A stretch of 64,000 nt of DNA from a virus (lineage: Duplodnaviria > Caudoviricetes): positions 26,712 to 90,711 of the IMG/VR virus record IMGVR_UViG_3300031998_000044; one strand, given 5' to 3'. Shown here in pieces: positions 4,007-59,805 of the stretch. Numbering within the stretch: the first letter of the stretch is position 1; each line of letters begins with the position of its first letter. The position numbers and the translations under genes are program-made. Below the pieces are notes generated by a model, which did not search any database, was not told the origin of the DNA, and worked only from the letters and a program-made list of their open reading frames with translations.

Positions 4007-5177
4007 ATGGAGAAAAAAATACAAGACTTGGAATGGTATCAATCATTCCGTTACAATGGTTATAGCTACTTTATTAAGCCTAACCAACAGAGAATTAACT
4101 ACACGCTCTGTGTCAAGAAACAAGGTGGAGAAATAAAAGAATTTAAAAACGACACAATTGTAATAATCTAAATATAAAAACAATGATAAAAGAGATAGAA
4201 TTATACTGCGTATTTGAGAAGTCAAACAGTGATGAAAGGCTAATTGACGCATTTCGTAAAAAAGAAGATGCAGAAAAACGATTGATAAAGGAAGATAGCG
4301 AATATTTAGCATGGCTACAATCACACGACAAAGGCTTGAACGATAGATGGTGTAAAAATCTTCATTATGAATACTATATGAAAAAATCACCTGTACAAAT
4401 ATACGTAGATGAAGAACCAGAAAAACATCCTACAATTGCAGAAAAAATAGCTGCTTTGCTTTTATATTGTGGCTATGACGATATACCTTATCTGTTCAAA
4501 GATATGGACTTCAAATATATCAGTCAAGCATACGTCTATTTGCAATCAGATGAACTGCCAATAGATTCAAATACTTTGATTACAAGTGCATTAAATATGA
4601 TTGCATACGAAGTATTTGGAAGTTGGGATTACATAGACGTAGATGCGAACAATTCAGCAACAAGAGTTAAACTTATCAAAAACACAAGTAAAAAGAAAAT
4701 AAAGGAGTTTGAAGAAAAATCAGGCTTTCCAATGTACTAAAAAATTATAAGGAGATTTAACTATGAAAGAAAATAATTGGGCAGTTATCTGCATCGAAGA
4801 AAACGGAGAACAGTGGGTATTTGATACCTACAAAACTCCATCAAAGGCACAAGCAGCCTGTAAACGCTTAAACAAAAATGCCGAAGGAGAATCATACAAA
4901 ATAGGCTATGTCGGATTATAAATAAAAAATAAATGCTATGAGATATGTACTACATTATTTAAACATAAATAAAAACTACACAATTAAAGACCAGTGTAGA
5001 GATGATTATCACAGCAGTTGGCAAAAAATGGAGTGTAAAACATTAAAAGAAGCAAAAGAATATGCCGCACTTGTAGAACGTTATTATATAATTGATAACA
5101 TCACTTTAAAAGTAGTTGCTATATCAGAAGGATTAAACGCAACAAATTTTATTGACAAATTAAGGAAGATTAAATGA
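4007..5177 (+). CDS. Run of small hypothetical genes (4007-4171, 4183-4740, 4763-4921, 4938-5177)
   Basis: Tightly packed co-oriented ORFs with A-rich initiation regions; no motifs recognised. Confidence 0.55.
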
Positions 5178-5434
5178 ACGCAAAGCAAATTCAAAACCAA
5201 TACAAGTCAATCAAGGAGAATTATCCTAATATGATATTGCTATTCAACGTAGGCAGTAACTACATTGCACTTCGAGATGATGCCAATGTTGTTGCCAAGG
5301 TATGTGGAATAGAGAAAATAAATACTATTGTAAAATTTAATTGTAACAAACTTGATGACTATTTGTTCAAACTTGTACGGTCTGGACATAAAATAGGAGT
5401 TTGTGAAGAATTACCAAAACCAAATGACAAATAA
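5174..5434 (+). CDS. Stand-alone MutS domain I-like protein, copy 1
   Basis: QYKSIKENYPNMILLFNVG...DDANVVAKVCGI...LDDYLFKLVRSGHKIGVCEE follows the MutS_I pattern (YxxIKxxYPDxILxFRxGDFYE...DAxxxAxxLGI...YLxKLVxxGxxVAICEQ). Confidence 0.8.
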   Translation: MNAKQIQNQYKSIKENYPNMILLFNVGSNYIALRDDANVVAKVCGIEKINTIVKFNCNKLDDYLFKLVRSGHKIGVCEELPKPNDK

Positions 5435-5791: not shown

Positions 5792-5843
5792 CTTACGTTT
5801 TTTGTAAGTTATAGTTATTTCAGAAGAAATATGAATAATTTTG
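5792..5843 (+). promoter_or_regulatory. Palindrome-plus-(-7) promoter A
   Basis: CTTACG-TTTTT-TGTAAG (5792-5808), 27-nt spacer, TAATTTTG (5836-5843). Confidence 0.7.
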
Positions 5844-9017: not shown

Positions 9018-9221
9018 ATGCCAATAATGGTTAAATTTCTCATCATTTTATCAAGTATTATTTGTATCATCTTTGGAGTAATATGTATAATCGGAAGCCT
9101 ATTGTACATACTTAACAATCAGACGTACACATCATTATTTTTATTAATCGTAACATTTTTAGGCAGCGAATCCATTGACATAGGTTGTGAAACCATCAAA
9201 AAGATAACACGAAATCTATAA
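9018..9221 (+). CDS. Small two-helix membrane protein
   Basis: Two hydrophobic stretches; converges on and overlaps the integrase 3' end. Confidence 0.5.
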   Translation: MPIMVKFLIILSSIICIIFGVICIIGSLLYILNNQTYTSLFLLIVTFLGSESIDIGCETIKKITRNL

Positions 9222-10404
9222 CCTTCCTATTAGCAGAATCCACCTTATTATAATCAAACTTAATGTAAATATCTGTAACTGTATTGCCTTCGTGTCCAAG
9301 TGCGTGAGCAATGACATCACGGCTAATATCTAACTGTGAAGCGAGAGTAGCCCAAGTATGTCTTGCCCAATATGTACTTAGTTCAGGGAACAACGGAGAT
9401 ACAGTTTTCTTTCCACATTCGTCATATTGAACATCTCCGACACGCTTCAAGTTCTTATTAAATCGTTCCAAGAAGTCCTTGTAGTTGTGATAACCGTCAA
9501 GGATATTCAAAAGATAATCGACACCTTTATATATATTAAGAATATCCAACGCTTCGGGTTCAAGTTTAATTGAGTACAGACGTGATGTCTTTGCTCTTTT
9601 AAATTCCAATCTACCGTTAACAATATTGTCTTGCGTACAGTGAAGTAAATCAACCATATTGATACCTATAAGATAAAAATCAAGAATAAAGAGGTCTACA
9701 TATTTTTTAAGATAGTCCTCAACAGGATAGGTCATAAACATACGTAGCTCAATAACTGTTAACGAGCGTTTACGTGTCGGTATAGGTCGAATTTTAAATG
9801 TACGGAAAGGATAATGCGAAGTGATTTCGTTATCTATGGCATCATTAAAAACAGCACGAATATTACGTAAATGAACATTGCGACCGTTTTTAGAATTAGA
9901 GGTCAAGGCTAAGTGATTCTCGAAATCAGTAAGCCAACCTTTATTCAAATCTTCAAATCGCTTAAAATCAATATTTTTGTCGAAGTCGTGAATACGTTTT
10001 AATGTGAATAAGTAGATGTTTTTTGTAGTAACGTTTAATTTTCGATTAGCAAATTTTAAAAAATAATTACAAAACAAATTTTCATCAGTAGGCTTATTAT
10101 CAGACAATTGCAAATCTATTGCTGCCTTTACTTCATTAACATCGTTAAAATTTATATTTTTATTTACAAACGAAAATATTATTTTATCAATTTTATTTTT
10201 AAACTCCAAGATAAAGGACATTAATGTTTCTTTATTAGGCACACGAAGAATTTTTTGTGATACGTTGTCCCAACAGTTAGGTTGCAGTTTTATTTTTAGT
10301 GGAAAGTAGACGGCTTTTTGCTTGTAGGTAACAGCCAATTTTAATGATGCAGGTGAGCCGTCCTTCGTGTGCCTTTTATCAAGGTAAAATTTTGTCGTTA
10401 TCAT
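9196..10404 (-). CDS. int: Tyrosine integrase (Bacteroidota type: arm-binding, SAM-like and catalytic domains)
   Basis: N-terminal MITTKFYLDKR arm-binding domain; RNIRAVFNDAI; FYLIGINMVDL; FKRAKT; YWARHTWATLA; ALGH; C-terminal DIY tyrosine. Start placed at ATG 10404 rather than TTG 10434. Confidence 0.9.
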   Translation of the reverse strand: MITTKFYLDKRHTKDGSPASLKLAVTYKQKAVYFPLKIKLQPNCWDNVSQKILRVPNKETLMSFILEFKNKIDKIIFSFVNKNINFNDVNEVKAAIDLQLSDNKPTDENLFCNYFLKFANRKLNVTTKNIYLFTLKRIHDFDKNIDFKRFEDLNKGWLTDFENHLALTSNSKNGRNVHLRNIRAVFNDAIDNEITSHYPFRTFKIRPIPTRKRSLTVIELRMFMTYPVEDYLKKYVDLFILDFYLIGINMVDLLHCTQDNIVNGRLEFKRAKTSRLYSIKLEPEALDILNIYKGVDYLLNILDGYHNYKDFLERFNKNLKRVGDVQYDECGKKTVSPLFPELSTYWARHTWATLASQLDISRDVIAHALGHEGNTVTDIYIKFDYNKVDSANRKVIDFVLSF

Positions 10405-10516
10405 AACTTCAAATTTTAAACAAATTTTTTGCAAGTATTCTTGCTAATTTAATTTTTAATTTATAATTTAGTGCTTTGAATTACGATGATAACAGGTTGA
10501 TAATGTGCCATAAAAA

Positions 10517-10562
10517 GTCGGGGCAGAGAGATTCGAACTCTCGACCTTCTGCTCCCAAAGCA
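10517..10562 (-). mobile_element. attP core: 3' half of tRNA-Pro(TGG)
   Basis: Reverse complement TGC-TTTGGGA-GCAGAAGGTCGAGAGTTCGAATCTCTCTGCCCCGAC contains the anticodon loop (TGG), T-arm GTTCGAATC and 3' acceptor strand; the 5' half is absent; ~110 bp from the integrase start. Confidence 0.85.
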
Positions 10563-10633
10563 ATATGTTCAATCCTGTGTTTCATCAACTTACAAATGCA
10601 TTGCAAGTAAATTGCAAGTTAATCGCAAATTTC

Positions 10634-10650
10634 CTTACAAATTTCGTAAG
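10634..10650. promoter_or_regulatory. Copy of the CTTACA-N5-TGTAAG palindrome upstream of dnaB
   Basis: CTTACA-AATTT-CGTAAG; only 13 nt from a -7-like TTAATTTG (10664-10671), unlike the 27-nt spacing elsewhere. Confidence 0.55.
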
Positions 10651-10698
10651 GCAAAAATGAGCATTAATTTGCAATAAACAAAAAAATAAACACAAAAA

Positions 10699-12027
10699 AT
10701 GGAAGAAAAGAAACTACCTACAAGCGTAGAAACTGAAAAACTTATTCTCGGTGCAATTTTAATAGAGAAAGATGCAATTGAGAATGTTGTAGACATACTT
10801 AAACCTGAAATGTTCTACGATACAGCAAATAAAAGTATCTACGAAGCTTGTCTAAAACTCTACAATGGCAACAAACCAATCGACATTTATACTGTTAGCG
10901 AACAACTTGCAAAAGATAACAAGTTAGAAGAAGTCGGTGGAAGTTACTATGTTGCTACACTAACTGAGAATGTAGGCTCTGCAAGTCATATCGAATATCA
11001 TTCTAAAATTGTCGTAGAAAAGTATATCAGACGTAAATTGATTAAAGAATCGTATGAGATAGGACAAGATGCATATAACGCAGCAGTTCCATTGGAAGAA
11101 ATTGTCGAACGTCAAACAAAAATGATTGATACACTTGGTCAACATTTTGCAAATGAATCGGCAGAAACAATAGAAACTATATTCCCGAAGGTATTAAAGG
11201 AAATCGAACAAGCATCACAGCAAAAGTCAGGAATTAGCGGAATAAGCAGTGGTTTTACTCAAATTGATAGCCTTACACACGGTTTTCAACATACAGATAT
11301 GATAGTAGTAGGTGCAAGACCATCTATGGGTAAGACTGCATTTGCTTTATCGCTTATGATTCGAATGGCTATGAAAGGTGTAAGATGCTTGTTATTTAGC
11401 CTTGAAATGTCGAAAGTAGCGATTACCAAACGTATCACGTCTATGATAAGCAATATTACAGGTGATAAAATTCTTAGCGGAAGATTATCCGTAGACGATT
11501 GGAATGCACTCGAAGGAGCAGCACCAACAATTATGGGATTGCCTATAATTATAGACGATGAAGGTGGAATCAGCACACTGCAACTCAAAACTAAGTGCCG
11601 ACAGTATATGAAGAAGTATGGTTTTGATATTATAATGTTAGACTATCTTCAACTAATGAAAGATACAGAAACAAAATCAGACAAGAAAAATGATGAAGTT
11701 TCGGAGATAAGTCGCAAAATCAAAAACATAGCAAAGGAACTCAATGTACCATTCATTGTACTAAGTCAGTTGAACAGAAACTTGGAAAGCAGACCCGACA
11801 AAACTCCTATCAATGCAGATTTAAGAGATAGTGGCTCTATCGAACAAGATGCAGATGTAATAATGATGCTATATCGTCCAGAAGTTTATGGAATAGAACT
11901 TATGCCTAATGGATTAATTACCGACAAATTAGCACAAGTTATTATTACTAAACAAAGGAATGGCTCATTAGGAACAATTGACCTTCAATTCGACAAAGAG
12001 AATACCCGATGGACGGAGATGGAATAG
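10699..12027 (+). CDS. dnaB: Replicative DNA helicase DnaB
   Basis: GARPSMGKT, FSLEMS, LDYLQL, LSQLNR, DLRDSGSIEQDAD, KQRNG; N-terminal DnaB domain present; no intein. Confidence 0.95.
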   Translation: MEEKKLPTSVETEKLILGAILIEKDAIENVVDILKPEMFYDTANKSIYEACLKLYNGNKPIDIYTVSEQLAKDNKLEEVGGSYYVATLTENVGSASHIEYHSKIVVEKYIRRKLIKESYEIGQDAYNAAVPLEEIVERQTKMIDTLGQHFANESAETIETIFPKVLKEIEQASQQKSGISGISSGFTQIDSLTHGFQHTDMIVVGARPSMGKTAFALSLMIRMAMKGVRCLLFSLEMSKVAITKRITSMISNITGDKILSGRLSVDDWNALEGAAPTIMGLPIIIDDEGGISTLQLKTKCRQYMKKYGFDIIMLDYLQLMKDTETKSDKKNDEVSEISRKIKNIAKELNVPFIVLSQLNRNLESRPDKTPINADLRDSGSIEQDADVIMMLYRPEVYGIELMPNGLITDKLAQVIITKQRNGSLGTIDLQFDKENTRWTEME

Positions 12028-12320
12028 AGATGTGCAAAGGATGTAGTTTCTATATTAGTAAAGGTGTTTGCAGTTTAAAACACATAAAAGTAAGTTCTAA
12101 GACCGCTGCCTGTTCGTCGTATAGCGACGTAAACACTGTCCCGGTAAGAACTGAAACTTGTGCCACTTGCAAACACCATTTTTTACCTGACAAAGAATAC
12201 CCTAATTATTCGCTGTATAGAGATTACAAAGGAGATTTTTTTCTCTGCAAATGCAAGTTTCACAAAGAAGCAAAATTTTTAAACAAAGATTATTGTAAAA
12301 AGTATGAAAAAAGCAGATAA
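12009..12320 (+). CDS. Cys-rich hypothetical protein
   Basis: Two CxxC...C...C clusters (CKGC, CATC); probable start MCKGC at 12030. Confidence 0.5.
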   Translation: MDGDGIEMCKGCSFYISKGVCSLKHIKVSSKTAACSSYSDVNTVPVRTETCATCKHHFLPDKEYPNYSLYRDYKGDFFLCKCKFHKEAKFLNKDYCKKYEKSR

Positions 12321-12852
12321 TAACTTCATATTCAAATACGACGAAATGAAAGCAATAGAACTTCAAAACAATTACAATAAAATCAAGGTAAAATATCCTG
12401 ATGCAATTTTGCTATTTCGCGTAGGCAACAACTTCATTGCACTTCGAGATGACGCAAACATTGTAGCAAAAGTCTGCGGAATACAGGAAACAAACACGAT
12501 TGTTAAATTCAGTTACAACAAACTTGACGACTATTTGCCCAAACTTGTACGGTCGGGACATAGAACGGCAGTTTGTGAAGAACTCCAACTCCCAAAGAAA
12601 ACGCCACACCAAATATCAAACGAATGGCAAAAGTTTGAAATCAAATATGGAGTACCAAGGTTTAGCCAACTTCTTGACAACAACCTTGCACTACTTGGAA
12701 AATTTGTTATCGACATAATTAAATTTGACGATTGGTTGCACAAACAATTCGGCGACTATGAATCAGAAGACAAGTCTATGAGCGGCATTTTGTTGGAGAA
12801 GTACGGATACGACATACAACAATATGTCAAACAAATGATTGAAACTTTATAA
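12304..12852 (+). CDS. MutS domain I-like protein, copy 2, with C-terminal extension
   Basis: 54/74 aa identical to 5174-5434 over the MutS_I-like domain, followed by ~85 unrelated residues. Confidence 0.8.
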   Translation: MKKADNNFIFKYDEMKAIELQNNYNKIKVKYPDAILLFRVGNNFIALRDDANIVAKVCGIQETNTIVKFSYNKLDDYLPKLVRSGHRTAVCEELQLPKKTPHQISNEWQKFEIKYGVPRFSQLLDNNLALLGKFVIDIIKFDDWLHKQFGDYESEDKSMSGILLEKYGYDIQQYVKQMIETL

Positions 12853-14126: not shown

Positions 14127-17100
14127 ATGGCAAGTTATATAGAATTTACAAAAGTACAAAAGGTTAGAGTTCCAATTAAAGAGGAAATGTGCGTAAATGA
14201 GTTTATAGACTTTATGAACGGAGATTCTAACATATACGATTACGAAAAAGAACTCTTTGACTTCGATAATGAAGAAGTAGTAGAAGAAGAACACTCTTAT
14301 ATGAATAACGATTGTAAGTTAGTTTGTAACGACAAAGTTGATTTTGAATATAAAAGCCCATATCAAGGATTAGTTTTAATGAAATTACAAAAACAATAAA
14401 TTATGACACACACATCAATAGAGTAATCAAAAGCACTAATGTACTTAGGCTTGGATGAGAAAACTGCGGATTTAACAATCACGTCAGATATTATCTTAAT
14501 CAACAATAATTTAATACAAAAAGTATGAAAGTAGCAGATGTTAGAAAACTCACAGAGTATACACAAATAAAATTAATAGGTGATAAGACAGGTAAAATAT
14601 TATGTCAATCTTGGTTAAATAAAAAAGAAACCATTGATAAGTACAATGATTATGAAGCCTCTGGTATATATCCAGATGTTAGAAGCTCTCAAATAGATGG
14701 AGTTATTTATCCAATTATTTGTATTTATGTTAGAGGTTGTTAAACAATAAACAAAGACAATGAAAGCATTTACTGATTTTGAACAAAGTAAGAAACTTGC
14801 AAAAATATTACCACTTGAAAGTGCTGATATGCACTGGCAATATATTGAAGAAGATAATGGACAGTTACAGTGGTTTTGTCTTCCAAAAGATTTGTCAATT
14901 AATAAACACGATGTAATTTCAGCTTGGAGTCTTGCTGCACTGATAGATATTCTACCAGTAGATTTGTGGGGCTACACTGACCATTATTTCCTCGAAATCT
15001 CTAAGATGGGAGATGCCTCTAAACCTAATGAAGTTCGTTATTTTAGGTTTAAAAAGAACATACTAGATACATCTGATAGGATAACACATATCTTACACTC
15101 AGCAGAAAATCTAGTTGATGCGTGTGTAAATATGATTTTTACACTACATACACATAAATTTTTATCAAATAAATAAACAATAAAACATGGAATTAGAAGA
15201 AGTCAAAAACTATGCTGTTTCAAAAGAAACAACTCCACTTGCAAAATATATAGCAGGAAAATTAGTTGAACTAGGTAATGAACACCTCAAGTATGTTAAA
15301 AACCCTTACTGTTTTGCAAATGGAGTAAATGTAGGAATGTCTAAGGCATATCAAGATATTCTTGACAAATTACATGAAGAACAAGCTAAAACTGAGGACA
15401 TCGACACCCTTGGAGTAAAAGAAGATGAAATAGATGAGAAACATAAAATTGGCAAGTGGTTTATGGGACTGATTCCTTGTTGGGTAGATGCACCGTCAAC
15501 CTTGCAGGCTGCTCACGACCATCATGGGAAGAATATTGTAGCTGTTCACTTAAAGAACGGTGGGTACAGATGCTGTTGTGTTGATGACAAGGAACCAATT
15601 ACATTTTCTTTAGCAGAAGGTACGCCTCTTGTTGAAGGATGGCATAATAAAAAATAATACTAATATGACACAAGAAGAAAAAATATTGTTATTAAAAGAC
15701 CTTTGTGCAAGATTGCAATCTGGTCTTATTTGTAAAGTCGCACATAAAGATTCTGAAGGTTGGAAAGAAGAAGATATGGTGCTTAATGGCTAATTACAGC
15801 TTTTGCGATTAGTATAATGTAACAAAAAGCAAATGGCAGAAAATACTAACTTACGTTATCAAGTATATGGTTTAGATAATAAAGGAAATTTAAGTTCTCC
15901 TATTACAAAACCAATAATTACAAAAGAACGCTGTTATAAATACTTCAATGAATGTGTACAATGTGCCATTGTTTCTATTAACGAACACGGTTCTATCATT
16001 GAAGTTATTGATAAAAATTTAACACCAAAAGAAAAATGTAACCGAATCACAAATATTAATTAGCGAATTTTACATTGAATAATTATGAGCGGAAGTTACG
16101 AATTTATCAACAAATACGAGGCTTGCATTGCATTAAAGCAGATAGCAAGCAAATTTGGAATATACGTAGAAGGAAATTCTCTTAACGAAGAATGTCATCG
16201 TATTGATATTGACGAAATCCAAATTGACGAAGATACGGATATTGTTATAAAACTAAACAAGGAAACCAATGGGCTACGTTGAAGAAAAAATCGAAGAAGC
16301 AGTTAGTATTTATGCTGACTTAAAGTTTCAATTCTATTTGATTAGTGCAGAAATAAATAAAGAGCCACGTTTCTTAAATTATTCAGGTACATTCAGCGAA
16401 TTAAATTTAAAAGGAAACAAAAAGTTTTCTGACTTAGAATCAGCACAAAACGAGCAAAAACAATGCAAACGTAAAAACACAAAGATTCACAAAGTCACAA
16501 TACTCTTAGAAGACCAATGACAGAAACAGACGAATACATTGAGAAATTCAAAGACAAACTATTTACCGTCAATAGAAACATAAATTTTGTTGTACAACTT
16601 ATAAAAAACGACATAACAATATATGTACACGAAGATGGTATTCGCTCGTTAGGAGCGCAAAAAAGAACCATTGACGGCTATTATGGCAATCATTCTCCAA
16701 TCTCTCTCAAACAAGCATACGAAATGCTTGTTAATGGCAAAGAAAATGAACTTTTTAACGAAAAAATGCCATTCTAATGGAAGAAATTTTACGTTCAGAA
16801 GGTTTTACACTCAATCGAAATGGAGTATACTATCTTGCTTATTATGGCAAAGAAATGTTCATAACATTAAAAAAAGACTACATCAGATATTGCACAGATT
16901 ACGCTATGCACTGTTTCGGTTACGGTGGAATTATCCAAGCCGTACCGAGCATATTGCAAAGGCTTATTAAACGATTTAAAGAAATTAAAGATAAAATGTC
17001 AACAATAAAACGCAAAAGATATGAGCAAAACTATGGATTATATTCTCAGGATGCAAGAACAAGGTATAGATGTTCTGCATAAAAAAATGCCTGATGAACC

Positions 17101-23999: not shown

Positions 24000-24593
24000 A
24001 TGGTTACACTAAATGACATAAAGAACGCAAATAATATTTGTTCTGTGTTTAAACGTCACAGATATAACAAGGGAATATTACTTGATGCTTTCTTGTTTGA
24101 TACACTTGAAGATTTCGACATAAATTGTCATTATAAATACGATTTCGATGTTTATTTGACAAAGTTTGGAATAAATTTGCAAAGACCGTATGTTTGGGAA
24201 TATTACCAACAACAAGAATTAATATTATCTCTACTTTTTGAAAAACAAGTTGAAAAGGTTGTTGCTATATTGCACAATAGCGATTTAAACCGTAAAAATG
24301 CAGTAATGTTTATCATTGACGGAAAGCAACGATTATTAACAATTTATAAATTTATACACAATGAGTTCCCTATAAATCTTAATGGGAAACAAGTATACTT
24401 CAAAGATTTTGATAAGGATGCTTACTACTTTTTCCGTAGTCGAGTAAATTATATTCTTGCTGATGTATATTACTCTTATGATAATGAACCGATTTCTGAC
24501 GAGGAAAAAATAATCATATTCAATTTTTATAACTTCTCAGGCACTCCACAGACTGAAGAACATAAGAAAAAACTTGAAGCATTATTACAATAA
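24000..24593 (+). CDS. Stand-alone DUF262 (ParB/Srx-fold, GmrS/SspE-like) protein
   Basis: LQRPYVW, IIDGKQRLLTI and FNFYNFSGTP match the QRxYxW, DGQQR and FxxxN motifs. Confidence 0.75.
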   Translation: MVTLNDIKNANNICSVFKRHRYNKGILLDAFLFDTLEDFDINCHYKYDFDVYLTKFGINLQRPYVWEYYQQQELILSLLFEKQVEKVVAILHNSDLNRKNAVMFIIDGKQRLLTIYKFIHNEFPINLNGKQVYFKDFDKDAYYFFRSRVNYILADVYYSYDNEPISDEEKIIIFNFYNFSGTPQTEEHKKKLEALLQ

Positions 24594-25300: not shown

Positions 25301-25352
25301 CTTACATATAATGTAAGTGTTTGTTTTTGTATTTAGTTTATTTCTTTATTTG
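25301..25352 (+). promoter_or_regulatory. Palindrome-plus-(-7) promoter B
   Basis: CTTACA-TATAA-TGTAAG (25301-25317), 27-nt spacer, TTTATTTG (25345-25352); extra palindrome GAAGTTA-T-TAACTTC at 25354-25368. Confidence 0.7.
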
Positions 25353-25383: not shown

Positions 25384-26808
25384 ATGAATATAAATACAAA
25401 TGACTATGTAGTAGTAAATGGAAAAAAATATTACGCAGAAGGTGGTATAAAATATTTTGATAATGGAGGACCAACTAAAAAAGAACTTAAACAATTTGTT
25501 GATTGGAATTCCAATCGTATGAATAAAAAATCATTAAGAGGACCAACTTCATGGCGTTCAGGGGATGAAAAAGACGAAGATTTTGCAAAGCAATTTATTC
25601 AGAATATGCAAAACTATGTAAATCCAAATGATAAGAATAAATTGACATTAACTCAAGCAATGCATATTCAAGATTTATTAGATTCAGTACCAAAATATGT
25701 AAAAGACGAAGATTTATACGATGTATATAATAGTGAAGGTAAATTTGCTGGATTTGAAGATAGTCCTGAACTTATGAATTTACGTTGGGCAGATAAATAT
25801 AATAATATTGATGATATTATTAGTAATCGTAGTCTAATGTTTAAAAATGTATATAATTCACCTGAATTTCAAAATAAAGTAAAAGAATTTCTTTCTACAA
25901 AACGTGGTAATGGTTCATATATTGAATATAAACATCCAATAACAGGTGATGATATGTATTATAGGTTTTATATTGGTAAAGATGGGGCAGGATTTGTACC
26001 TGATTTTAATGCAAAAAGTAAAGGATTTGAGCCTATTGTTACACTTAGAGGAAATGGAATAGAAAATACAGAAGAATATGAAATTGAACCTGAAAAAAGA
26101 GAAATTTATAATGGTGAAGAAATCGTAATTCCTGCAAAAAAAGGTAGAAGATTTATTATTAACCAAAATGAAAAAAATAGAATAGACAACGGTTATAGTT
26201 ATGGAAATTTTTATGAAGGTTCTGAATCTAATCCTGTAAATCTTGGAACAGGAGAAAAAATAGAGTATTATAACAATTTAAAAAATTTAAATGCCAACGA
26301 CCAATATAAACAAATAAAGGAAAACCATGCATACGGTGGTCCTACTACTCGTCTTTTCGCAAGCGGCGGTGATATGGGTGCTATTCCTATGGGTGAACAG
26401 CCTGACTACAATATGGTAGGCGCAGGTGGAAGCCACGAAATGAATCCGCAAGGCGGTGTGCCATACGGAATGAACACAGACGGAAGCCAAAATATGGTAG
26501 AACAAGGCGAAGTTTCTGTTGGAAACAACGTATTTAGTGACCGCACAGCAATATCGCCCGAACTTTGTCAACAACTTGGATTACCCGAAGGTACATCACA
26601 CGCACAGGCAATGCAGCAAATTGAAGCATTGTATGAGCAAGGACAAATTGGCGAACAAGAATACCAAGAAATCTCCCAAATTCTTTTCCAAGACCAAGAA
26701 GCGCAAAAACAAGGTGGTGGTATGCCGCAACCTCAAAACGAAGGTATTCAGCCTGAAATGGTAGCACCCGAAGGTTATGCTTGGGGTGGTCGTAGAAGAT
26801 GTAGATAA
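25384..26808 (+). CDS. crAss-type putative virion cargo protein with repeated xxxGG motifs
   Basis: YAEGG, FDNGG, HAYGG, FASGG, YAWGG; C-terminal GGSHEMNPQGGVPYG...NMVEQGEV...VFSDR segment recalled from crAss-like virion proteins. Confidence 0.55.
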   Translation: MNINTNDYVVVNGKKYYAEGGIKYFDNGGPTKKELKQFVDWNSNRMNKKSLRGPTSWRSGDEKDEDFAKQFIQNMQNYVNPNDKNKLTLTQAMHIQDLLDSVPKYVKDEDLYDVYNSEGKFAGFEDSPELMNLRWADKYNNIDDIISNRSLMFKNVYNSPEFQNKVKEFLSTKRGNGSYIEYKHPITGDDMYYRFYIGKDGAGFVPDFNAKSKGFEPIVTLRGNGIENTEEYEIEPEKREIYNGEEIVIPAKKGRRFIINQNEKNRIDNGYSYGNFYEGSESNPVNLGTGEKIEYYNNLKNLNANDQYKQIKENHAYGGPTTRLFASGGDMGAIPMGEQPDYNMVGAGGSHEMNPQGGVPYGMNTDGSQNMVEQGEVSVGNNVFSDRTAISPELCQQLGLPEGTSHAQAMQQIEALYEQGQIGEQEYQEISQILFQDQEAQKQGGGMPQPQNEGIQPEMVAPEGYAWGGRRRCR

Positions 26809-26990: not shown

Positions 26991-27042
26991 CTTACACATT
27001 TTGTAAGGTATTAAAAATCAACGGTAATATATAGTATTTTTG
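26991..27042 (+). promoter_or_regulatory. Palindrome-plus-(-7) promoter C
   Basis: CTTACA-CATTT-TGTAAG (26991-27007), 27-nt spacer, TATTTTTG (27035-27042); heads the Bro-N/DUF3310/ring/muzzle unit. Confidence 0.75.
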
Positions 27043-32426: not shown

Positions 32427-33728
32427 CTAACCCTTTGTATAAGTTATGTCAGCTACATCAGAATCAGTCATAGTTGCTTTTATAGCAATTGCCTTGATTG
32501 TGGTTGTTTCTGAAAGAGTAATCTTAGTTGCTGGGTCGTATTCAGTGCTGCCTGATGTCGGTGTAGTTGTACCATCAGTAGTATAATAAATAGTTGCACC
32601 ATCAGTAGCGCATGTAATTTCAACTACTTGGTCAGATGAAGAATCTTCCCATGCAGCAGGACTGAACTCAGGAGTTGCTACTTTTGTAGGAGTAGTATCA
32701 TCATCATCGTCGTCATCATCATCGTCGTCATCATCAACAGTGATAGTTGGATAAGAACATCCAGTTGCATTATTGATTTCTGTAACGATTGAATTGATAA
32801 CTGCTGCTTTGTCAGAAACTACAACGATGTCTTTCTCTGATTTCTGTACGCTCTCGTTGCTACCTACATAACAATAGTGAATTGTCAAGTAGTTGTACTC
32901 TTTTAAGGGGTCAACCAAAGGTTCGCTTGAAAGCGGATAAGTGTAACCATGAGGATAATCGCCGTTGATAGCAAGTGAGAAATCTTCTGCATCGGCTGTT
33001 TTCTTGCCGTTACCGAAGTATTCTGTTTCAGATGTAGATTCAGTAATGGTTGCCCATTCAACGTCTGAATTAGAATATTTAATAACAGAATCATTAAGAG
33101 TAATGCGATAACGTTCAAATGAGAACGAATTACGTTTCCAATACGGTTCAGCTTCTTTGATAATAACACTTGAAGCACTGATATCAGAAAGGTCGGTTTC
33201 CTTTGTAAGAGGAGTAATTTCCATTTCACTCGATGACGAGTAACCGATAAATACAGAAACAGGCTTGTCAGGCTCACGAGAAAAATTCTTAGCAATAGAG
33301 ATTGCAAGTTTCTTGTAAAAGTCGCTGTTAGTAAGACCTGCATAACCATGTACAGCACCGTATTTAATGTACTCATTAATATCAGACTTGTCGTAATAAC
33401 CTGCGGTTTTAACACGCAAGATATAATCTTCACCCGAGACAATATTACCCGAGTTAACATTGCTGTTAAGAGTAACAGTAAATACTTTTTTGTACATACG
33501 TTGAGATTCTGCTGATGCTGTTTTAACCCAAAGTATGTTTTTTACAGGGATGAGGTCAGAACGTGTCTGAATTCCTTTTGCGTCTACATACTTCAAAATA
33601 AGGTCACAACCGTCTCCGCCTACTTTTGCTTTAATTGTGCCAGGCGCAGCGACTACTCCGTCAGAAACGGTATTGCCGTATGCATAGGCAACAAATAATT
33701 TCTTTGCTTGGTTTGTGTTTCTACTCAT
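32427..33728 (-). CDS. Auxiliary capsid protein-like with poly-Asp linker and C-terminal CHB_HEX_C/Fn3-type domain
   Basis: Position after the two ring genes matches the order recalled for phiCrAss001 (gp32-gp36); D13 linker, then VATPEFSP...ITCATDGATIYYTTDG...TTTIKAIAIK. Confidence 0.6.
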   Translation of the reverse strand: MSRNTNQAKKLFVAYAYGNTVSDGVVAAPGTIKAKVGGDGCDLILKYVDAKGIQTRSDLIPVKNILWVKTASAESQRMYKKVFTVTLNSNVNSGNIVSGEDYILRVKTAGYYDKSDINEYIKYGAVHGYAGLTNSDFYKKLAISIAKNFSREPDKPVSVFIGYSSSSEMEITPLTKETDLSDISASSVIIKEAEPYWKRNSFSFERYRITLNDSVIKYSNSDVEWATITESTSETEYFGNGKKTADAEDFSLAINGDYPHGYTYPLSSEPLVDPLKEYNYLTIHYCYVGSNESVQKSEKDIVVVSDKAAVINSIVTEINNATGCSYPTITVDDDDDDDDDDDDDTTPTKVATPEFSPAAWEDSSSDQVVEITCATDGATIYYTTDGTTTPTSGSTEYDPATKITLSETTTIKAIAIKATMTDSDVADITYTKG

Positions 33729-59731: not shown

Positions 59732-59805
59732 TGGTTATCCTACGAGGATTCGAACCTCAACTAACAGAACCAAAATCTGCTGTGCTGCCATTACACCATA
59801 GGACA
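59732..59805 (-). tRNA. tRNA-Gln(TTG)
   Basis: TGTCCTATGGTGTAATGGCAGCACAGCAGA-TTTTGGT-TCTGTTAGTTGAGGTTCGAATCCTCGTAGGATAACCA: full cloverleaf, anticodon TTG, encoded CCA. Confidence 0.92.

Follow-up and report, generated by a model that had tools for sequence, protein, structure and literature searches.

An integrase and a tRNA-Pro attachment site point to integration of a crAss-like phage into rumen Bacteroidales

Cultured crAss-like phages persist for weeks without lysogeny (PMC6235969, PMC10136315), and a 2023 review considered true lysogeny in the crAss-like group to be unsupported by evidence (PMC10136315). Whether a phage with a crAss-type virion can integrate into the chromosome of its host is a question raised by the IMG/VR record IMGVR_UViG_3300031998_000044, in which a tyrosine integrase gene adjoins the 3′ part of a tRNA-Pro(TGG) gene. 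The window analyzed here is a 64,000-nt stretch of this 90,711-bp record (bases 26712-90711), and coordinates are positions in the window unless the whole genome is named. The record has direct terminal repeats, with an exact terminal overlap of 127 bp, and is rated 100% complete; it is therefore a free, circularly assembled phage genome. Sequencing runs that contain the phage DNA are labelled bovine gut metagenome. From the anatomy of the locus, an exact match to host tRNA genes, and the integrated and free forms of a related module, we infer that the phage likely integrates at tRNA-Pro(TGG) of a family of rumen Bacteroidales with a working lambda-style attP/integrase module, and that its lifestyle is probably temperate.

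The virion module places the phage among the crAss-like phages. Its major capsid protein (MCP) matches gp32 of crAss001 (PDB 7qof) over the full length (E 5.5e-147), the portal, large terminase (TerL), and major head protein correspond to phrog_6547, phrog_6681, and phrog_11589 in PHROGs, and Pfam detects crAss_CARGO2, crAss_CARG1, and CrAss_Ring_2. The large-terminase, portal, and head genes also match Steigviridae genomes. With members of that family (cr85_1, IAS virus, crAss001) the phage shares TerL at 60% identity (to Kahnovirus cr85_1 and IAS virus), portal at 51%, and MCP at 49%, as well as ring, cargo, and muzzle proteins and three giant RNA-polymerase-related proteins. These last, of 2505, 1514, and 2944 aa, have counterparts in three cr85_1 genes that carry RNA-polymerase or RNA-polymerase-subunit annotations; the 2505-aa protein matches the cr85_1 ‘putative RNA polymerase’ at E 3e-106, and a phmmer search of the PDB with it gave no matches. 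By these similarities the phage is classed as crAss-like, with a Steigviridae-like virion and a virion RNA polymerase. The first-pass annotation, made from the letters of the window, had likewise named a crAss-like phage with a virion RNA polymerase, with which the capsid, terminase, and polymerase comparisons agree.

The integrase gene and the adjoining tRNA-Pro sequence

The locus comprises the following features:

9196..10404, minus strand: tyrosine integrase, 402 aa from the ATG at 10404, in an open frame that reaches a TTG at 10434; N-terminal arm-DNA-binding, SAM-like core-binding, and catalytic domains, assigned from Pfam and alignment
10405..10516, minus strand: integrase-side attP arm, 112 nt, with one YTTGCRA site at 10429-10436
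10517..10562, minus strand: attP core, 46 nt, equal to positions 29-74 of the host tRNA-Pro(TGG)
10563..10698, minus strand: dnaB-side attP arm, 136 nt, with three phased YTTGCRA sites (10601, 10612, 10623) at 11-nt spacing
Within the dnaB-side arm: an inverted TTGCAA at 10668 and a palindrome, CTTACA-N5-CGTAAG, at 10634-10650
10699..12027, plus strand: DnaB-type replicative helicase (DnaB_C, E 3e-90), the first gene past attP

The integrase frame is uninterrupted from 9196 to 10434 on the minus strand, and the ATG at 10404 is the likely start because related proteins begin with MITTKFYLD. The arm-binding and core-binding domains score above their Pfam cut-offs (Arm-DNA-bind_5, PF17293, 41.7 bits against 22.6; Phage_int_SAM_5, PF13102, 49.8 bits against 22.3), with the catalytic model Phage_integrase (PF00589) below threshold at 17.2 bits against 27.1. 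PHROGs assigns the protein to phrog_1 (E 2e-23). In an alignment of 25 family members, including the phage protein itself, R270, Y345-x-x-R348, H371, and Y380 are invariant and the phage integrase retains every invariant column. An alignment profile sets Y345-x-x-R348 against box II of the XerC-like recombinase 4A8E, and H371 and Y380 against its His and its nucleophilic Tyr (LRH...GH...Y); across the whole family, a Tyr stands in place of the HxxR-box His of classical tyrosine recombinases. The catalytic residues identify the protein as a tyrosine recombinase and the arm-binding and core-binding domains mark the heterobivalent, arm-binding Bacteroidales type. A phmmer search of the PDB with the integrase gave no matches. 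The description of the integrase as intact in the first-pass annotation is borne out by the open frame, the domains, and the conserved residues, and nothing in the family-invariant positions suggests an inactive enzyme.

This integrase family is very large in Bacteroidales, with 5,234 matches at E<=1e-10. The phage protein is ~50% identical to thousands of chromosomal integrases of the order, from which it differs in sitting in a genome with a crAss-type virion; its closest full-length relatives are 60-63% identical. IntDOT and the NBU-type integrases of Bacteroidales have the same three domains (Arm-DNA-bind_5, Phage_int_SAM_5, and catalytic), and NBU-type elements target the 3′ ends of tRNA genes; the predicted target of the phage is likewise a tRNA 3′ end, and arm-type repeats accompany it. 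The annotated integrase of the temperate Bacteroides phage BS-TP2 is 43% identical to that of the phage. Among GenBank crAss-like genomes there was no comparable integrase match, and megablast of the 8-13 kb region against GenBank phages gave no match. Scans of IMG/VR with the integrase, the integrase alignment, DnaB, and two att-core DNA patterns returned no close relative, the phage's own record possibly lying outside the scan, and a JGI metagenome scan with the integrase returned a single close relative (L055, below). The 99.8-kb GenBank entry MT835494.1 (‘Bacteriophage sp.’), whose integrase is 26% identical, was set aside as it has no match to the crAss MCP.

The attP core matches the 3′ portion of six complete tRNA-Pro(TGG) genes in all 46 columns. 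Within the tRNA it starts in the 5′ anticodon stem, of which it takes in the final 3 nt, and continues through the anticodon loop, the 3′ half of the stem, the variable loop, and the T arm to the 3′ acceptor strand and the discriminator base plus C. Identity with the tRNA sets in at TGC, 3 nt ahead of the loop, as the first-pass annotation had described, and stops after this C, with unrelated flanks on both sides. ARAGORN calls no tRNA at 10517-10562, and the sequence there is therefore only a partial tRNA; Rfam likewise finds no tRNA in the 9-11 kb region, with only a weak tmRNA-like match on the T arm, as expected for a partial tRNA. The core occurs once in the entire 90,711-bp record with up to 3 mismatches allowed, in keeping with the attP state proposed earlier from a single att copy, and lies 112 nt from the integrase start. 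The features by which a tRNA-targeting attP is recognized, namely identity to the 3′ part of a tRNA, a single copy, and an adjoining integrase, thus occur together.

Both arms carry direct repeats. TTGCAAGT is found on the plus strand at 10429, 10601, and 10612, and a degenerate third phased copy at ~10622-10623 keeps the 11-nt spacing, so that the repeats reported previously on both sides of the core, three of them phased, are present with this qualification. The window holds 13 exact copies of TTGCAAGT against 3.5 expected, a number reached in 0 of 100 shuffles. In the tRNA-sense orientation, YTTGCRA occurs four times in the 341 bp around att, compared with ~0.24 expected from its window-wide frequency, and these sites flank the core on both sides, all in one orientation. 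Local enrichment, phasing, and analogous repeats in relatives suggest that the YTTGCRA repeats are candidate arm-binding sites of the integrase.

The integration machinery itself is ordinary, belonging to the Bacteroidales family of arm-binding integrases with a lambda-type mode of working. Lambda Int with its attP (POP′), P4, and P22 represent the lambda-type and tRNA-targeting phage integrases. The phage shares with these systems a heterobivalent integrase, phased arm sites flanking a short core common to phage and host, and a target tRNA gene that integration would rebuild. It differs from them in having no detectable sequence relation beyond the catalytic box, in lacking a recognizable Xis/excisionase homologue, and in core length (46 nt in the phage and ~57 nt in a relative, against 15 nt). 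The earlier phrase ‘complete integration module’ was accordingly too strong: the integrase, core, and arms stand, and no excisionase or repressor was recognized.

Host tRNA-Pro genes and relatives of the module

The host search covered one genome per species, 185,579 species genomes in all, with an exact 43-nt stretch of the core as the query. Six genomes contained it. All six matches are whole tRNA-Pro(TGG) genes downstream of tRNA-Ser(TGA), and all are in metagenome-assembled genomes (MAGs) that carry the label Bacteroidales bacterium; these come from gut compartments of yak, goat, and sheep, with one ‘Tb.RUG’ bin among them. The six species fall in a single 25-species family of ruminant Bacteroidales, with which the bovine source of the phage fits. 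Host tRNA-Pro genes that match the core therefore exist, and the host prediction sought from the core in the first-pass annotation narrows to this one rumen family. In the phage's own sample, the 5′ half of tRNA-Pro appears as loose ends at 10562, and the phage and its candidate attB therefore coexist there.

Contigs with a related module were found in other samples:

L010, a 17-kb ENA contig from sample ERZ28594490: bacterial genes (HMGL-like, GH127, class III aminotransferase), tRNA-Ser, a whole tRNA-Pro, integrase, small genes, and RecT
L011, L012, L065, and L066, from two other assemblies: the same element as L010 at 99.7-100% identity
L055, from a JGI metagenome: dnaB, arm, core, arm, and integrase, at 78% nt identity
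L009, from ENA: 93% identical over the integrase

The L010 integrase is 62% identical to that of the phage and its RecT 72% identical at the nucleotide level, and the order from integrase to RecT is that of the phage, with ~9 kb of small genes between. In L011, L012, L065, and L066, an arm with homology to the dnaB-side arm of the phage, palindrome and TTTGCAG repeats included, stands in place of the 5′ part of the tRNA. By this exchange, L010 and L011 read as a natural attL/attP pair of a related module. A relative of the module thus occurs both integrated at tRNA-Pro (L010) and free (L011, L012, L066), and a prophage relative, whose lack the first-pass annotation would have counted against integration, is on record. 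The integrase-side arm of the L010/L011 element bears three TTTGC(A/G)G repeats 11 nt apart, immediately upstream of the integrase start, and L055 and L011 have homologues of the dnaB-side arm of the phage. Positions 10412-10957 are spanned by a 564-nt contig from the bovine run of another study (X5).

The core shared by L010 and L011, at ~57 nt, is longer than the 46 nt of the phage, and differs from it at three positions, two of which form a compensatory pair in the T stem. A tRNA-Pro variant that matches the L010/L011 core is found in three other genomes of the host family. The core of each phage follows the tRNA of its own host. L065 and L066 were considered as a complete 13-kb circular element and rejected, as there is no overlap between their ends, one of which leads into poly-A, and these ends look like assembly breaks. 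Exact-protein look-ups from L010/L011 (RecT, a 207-aa gene, and the host aminotransferase) found no longer contig.

Some other similarities connect the phage and the host family. The only tRNA gene of the phage, compared with 22 in cr85_1, is a tRNA-Gln(TTG) at 59732-59805, which is 94-95% identical over 64 nt to the tRNA-Gln gene in most of the family's genomes. At ~32697-32740, within a 433-aa gene, a stretch of 35-45 nt matches one or two places in many host-family genomes at 85-92% identity; these matches are unlike CRISPR spacers in that they involve the same phage position in many genomes and are imperfect. A search of the first 60 kb of the window against the host family for CRISPR-like or prophage DNA gave only tRNA and early-gene matches (the latter in the MAGs G010 and G011) and no convincing spacer. 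In G011, a chromosomal gene at C40:132.7-134.1 kb (L087) is 63% identical in amino acids to the C-terminal part of the crAss_CARG1-domain protein (25384-26808), and no crAss capsid gene was found in this MAG.

Proposed integration and its alternatives

On a lambda-type model, the N-terminal domain of the integrase would attach to the phased YTTGCRA sites in both arms, with the core-binding and catalytic domains bound to the imperfect inverted repeat of the anticodon stem (TTGC and GCAG around the 7-nt loop). The 46-nt core would then recombine with the identical 3′ part of a host tRNA-Pro(TGG) gene. Strand exchange most likely would take place in or beside the anticodon loop, a position that fits an identity beginning just three bases ahead of the loop. 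At the integrase end (attL), the core supplied by the phage would restore an intact tRNA-Pro, with the integrase-side arm directly behind it, and a 46-nt partial copy would be left at the dnaB end (attR). Integration would thereby separate dnaB from the integrase, placing it at the opposite end of the prophage. The predicted product runs from host sequence through tRNA-Ser, the rebuilt tRNA-Pro, arm, integrase, and early genes to the virion genes, and then through dnaB, arm, and the 46-nt core back to host sequence.

Several results weigh against integration by this phage. Neither attL nor attR of the phage was found in 25 host-family genomes, 401 Bacteroidales genomes, a JGI metagenome scan, or the Logan contigs of four runs; the Logan contigs (k=31) break in the 46-nt core and cannot distinguish attP plus attB from attL plus attR. 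Contigs spanning these junctions, for which the first-pass annotation had proposed a search, were thus not recovered. The tRNA-Pro sites examined in host-family genomes have no adjoining integrase or phage gene, and the crAss MCP is absent from the 25 host-family and 401 Bacteroidales genomes. Nor did searching five MAGs with an att match, the family to which they belong, and the 401 Bacteroidales genomes for MCP and integrase reveal a crAss prophage. Neither an excisionase nor a CI-type repressor was recognized with Pfam and PHROGs among 52 open reading frames (ORFs) of the early half (~16-52 kb of the whole genome, up to window ~25300), and genome-wide searches found no HTH_3 or HTH_17 above cut-off. 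L010 shows early genes only and does not prove integration of a genome with a crAss-type virion because the same early-gene pool occurs in a non-crAss prophage; it also comes from one study, and a short-read misjoin across its ~57-nt core retains some small probability. In L055, the integrase (332-1144) stops after about residue 199 and is followed by unrelated genes, with attP intact, which reflects either decay of the module, to which it can be subject, or a local misassembly.

The proposal in the first-pass annotation of a temperate phage that integrates at the host tRNA-Pro is therefore supported, though with reservations. It gains from the exact host core, the conserved integrase, and the integrated relative of the module, and falls short in that attL and attR of the phage itself were not found and that the relative may lack a crAss virion. 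Some other candidates were discarded. G002 has another tRNA-Pro-like copy, and G006, G025, and G015 have copies of the variant core; each proved to be a complete tRNA gene, and neither an integrase nor a phage gene lies near any of them. A 187-nt skip joint in run X3, with a 21-nt side, was treated as noise, and a crAss MCP in P0223, listed with a 245-kb longest contig, was returned from a phage-sized contig of 94.9 kb.

The unrecognized repressor and excisionase, the lack of a lysogen in the host-family and Bacteroidales genomes searched, and the truncated integrase of L055 beside an intact attP could also indicate that the module is a passenger, acquired recently by recombination along with the temperate-type early module, that has lost or not yet gained a role in stable lysogeny, in a lytic or carrier-state phage, as would be in line with the behavior of cultured crAss-like phages (PMC6235969, PMC10136315). 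However, the core is still identical at every position to an extant host tRNA, the arms are intact, and the integrase keeps every family-invariant residue. Furthermore, the small regulators of uncultured Bacteroidales phages often escape recognition, which makes missing Pfam and PHROGs matches weak evidence. We consider a passenger module unlikely, though a serious alternative to integration at tRNA-Pro. It is highly doubtful that the integrase instead has another job, such as resolving genome multimers or maintaining a plasmid-like state, with the likeness to tRNA-Pro incidental. The prototypic crAssphage has been reported as a non-integrating phage-plasmid (PMC10983915), and the att region also bears the phage-wide promoter palindrome, but a resolution site needs neither 46 nt of identity to a host tRNA nor an arm-binding domain with phased arm sites, and the same module is inserted at tRNA-Pro in a relative.

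Integration at tRNA-Pro, which we favor over these alternatives, would not make the phage the first crAss-like genome with an integrase. Catalogues of pig gut prophages (PMC12454387) and of the mouse gut virome (PMC13503771) have reported crAss-like prophages or integrase modules in bulk since 2025, the mouse catalogue finding such modules to be rare in Steigviridae (PMC13503771), and a study of Epsilon crAss-like phages found repressors and no integrase (PMC11054128). The suspicion that integrase-bearing crAss-like genomes had already been reported is thus correct at the level of catalogues (PMC13503771, PMC12454387). Only such bulk annotations, dating from 2025-26, speak for lysogeny in the group. 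Like the present genome, crAss-like genomes in these studies are predicted to be temperate or to occur as prophages (PMC12454387, PMC13503771, PMC11054128). Those annotations come in bulk and without att sites; the present analysis resolves attP, attB, and the host family, together with an attL/attP pair in a relative. The added value lies in the attP/attB pair, the prediction of a host family, and a clear exchange of modules. With attP, the exact attB, the host family, and the expected junctions known, the question of crAss lysogeny becomes testable for one defined phage.

Mosaic structure and other features of the genome

Comparison of proteins with cr85_1 yields matches to the virion and RNA-polymerase genes and thymidylate synthase, and none in the early half. 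The replication half of the phage differs wholly from that of cr85_1: homologues of the cr85_1 replication genes were not found in the phage genome, including those for primase, RNR, and UDG, PolA and PolB (PF00476, PF00136) gave no match in the complete genome with positive controls, and no early-half ORF is long enough for a DNA polymerase. A DNA polymerase and primase of their own are typical of Crassvirales rather than defining, and a phage without PolA or PolB is still crAss-like by its virion. In their place the early half encodes RecT, DnaB, SSB, an AAA-type ATPase, two MutS-domain-I proteins, and the integrase, with the majority of its ORFs matching no family. RecT and the integrase are closest to those of temperate Porphyromonas and Bacteroides phages, and the GenBank phages that match DnaB best are Firmicutes phages and unannotated fragments of faecal phages, not crAss-like genomes.

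A prophage in a host-family MAG (G010:C52, ~40.8-62 kb; L085, L086) has early genes 65-70% identical in amino acids to those of the phage, together with an HTH repressor-like gene and a Terminase_3-type terminase, and likely is a member of the donor pool for the early module. From this likeness and the affinities of RecT and the integrase, the early, lysogeny-related half appears to come from a pool of genes that ordinary temperate phages of this host family have in common. Such a shared pool supports the host assignment and a temperate design, with the reservation that L010 need not have a crAss virion. The G010 prophage also carries genes for sugar and amino-acid metabolism.

We lean towards a scenario in which a crAss chassis, comprising virion and virion RNA polymerase, replaced its whole replication half with a temperate module of initiator, helicase, RecT, and integrase without a polymerase, and may thereby have become a true integrative temperate phage. 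If so, the genome would provide a concrete route for a switch of lifestyle in Crassvirales by module exchange. Its mosaic structure indicates that the crAss virion module is compatible with replication and lysogeny genes that depend on the host, and bears on how abundant gut crAss-like phages change their lifestyle and host relations.

A palindrome recurs through both halves of the genome and in related contigs:

5792-5808, 10634-10650, 25301-25317, and 26991-27007: CTTAC-N7-GTAAG, four copies in the phage, before early genes and cargo/ring genes
L010:16716, L049:10347, L050:5045, L053:16261, L055:87, and L066:416: the same palindrome, once in each contig

Of the contigs related through the module, only L009 lacks the palindrome; none is expected by shuffling, and it is absent from the 98 kb of cr85_1. 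L053 is a true crAss contig with an MCP 56% identical to that of the phage, and represents the nearest crAss clade with a long contig. The sharing of the palindrome by the phage, the relatives of its module, and L053 points towards a common lineage, in which a regulator specific to that lineage probably uses it as operator; it is a candidate site for a repressor. At 15273-16097, next to its capsid genes, L053 also encodes a KilA-N/ANT protein of the anti-repressor type, which hints at temperate-type regulation in the whole clade; one early gene is common to L053 and L009.

The joins between these parts recur in independent assemblies. A 20-kb Logan contig covers the window from ~2.4 kb to 22.5 kb and a 22-kb contig runs from the core to ~32.7 kb; together, in a second assembler and at even depth, they link early genes, attP, and the crAss cargo, ring, and muzzle genes. 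The order of integrase, attP, and dnaB was assembled independently in other samples (L055 and the X5 contig), and L009 repeats the local layout. It is therefore very unlikely that the 9.2-10.7 kb segment, a concern of the first-pass annotation, or the entire early half is an assembly chimera of a crAss-like and a temperate phage, as the early half's similarity to a non-crAss prophage rather than to the nearest classified crAss genome and the breaks of short-read contigs within the core might suggest, since these contigs, the 127-bp terminal repeat that closes the record, the shared palindrome before early and virion genes, the repeated layout, and the KilA-N/ANT gene near the capsid genes of L053, with its early gene in common with L009, all argue otherwise.

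The two MutS-domain-I proteins are small and flank the integrase region (5174-5434 and 12304-12852, both E ~5e-13), and a homologue is also present in the relative L049. Just upstream of the cargo gene, at 24000-24593, a 197-aa protein has the N-terminal domain of a GmrSD_N (DUF262-type) restriction endonuclease.

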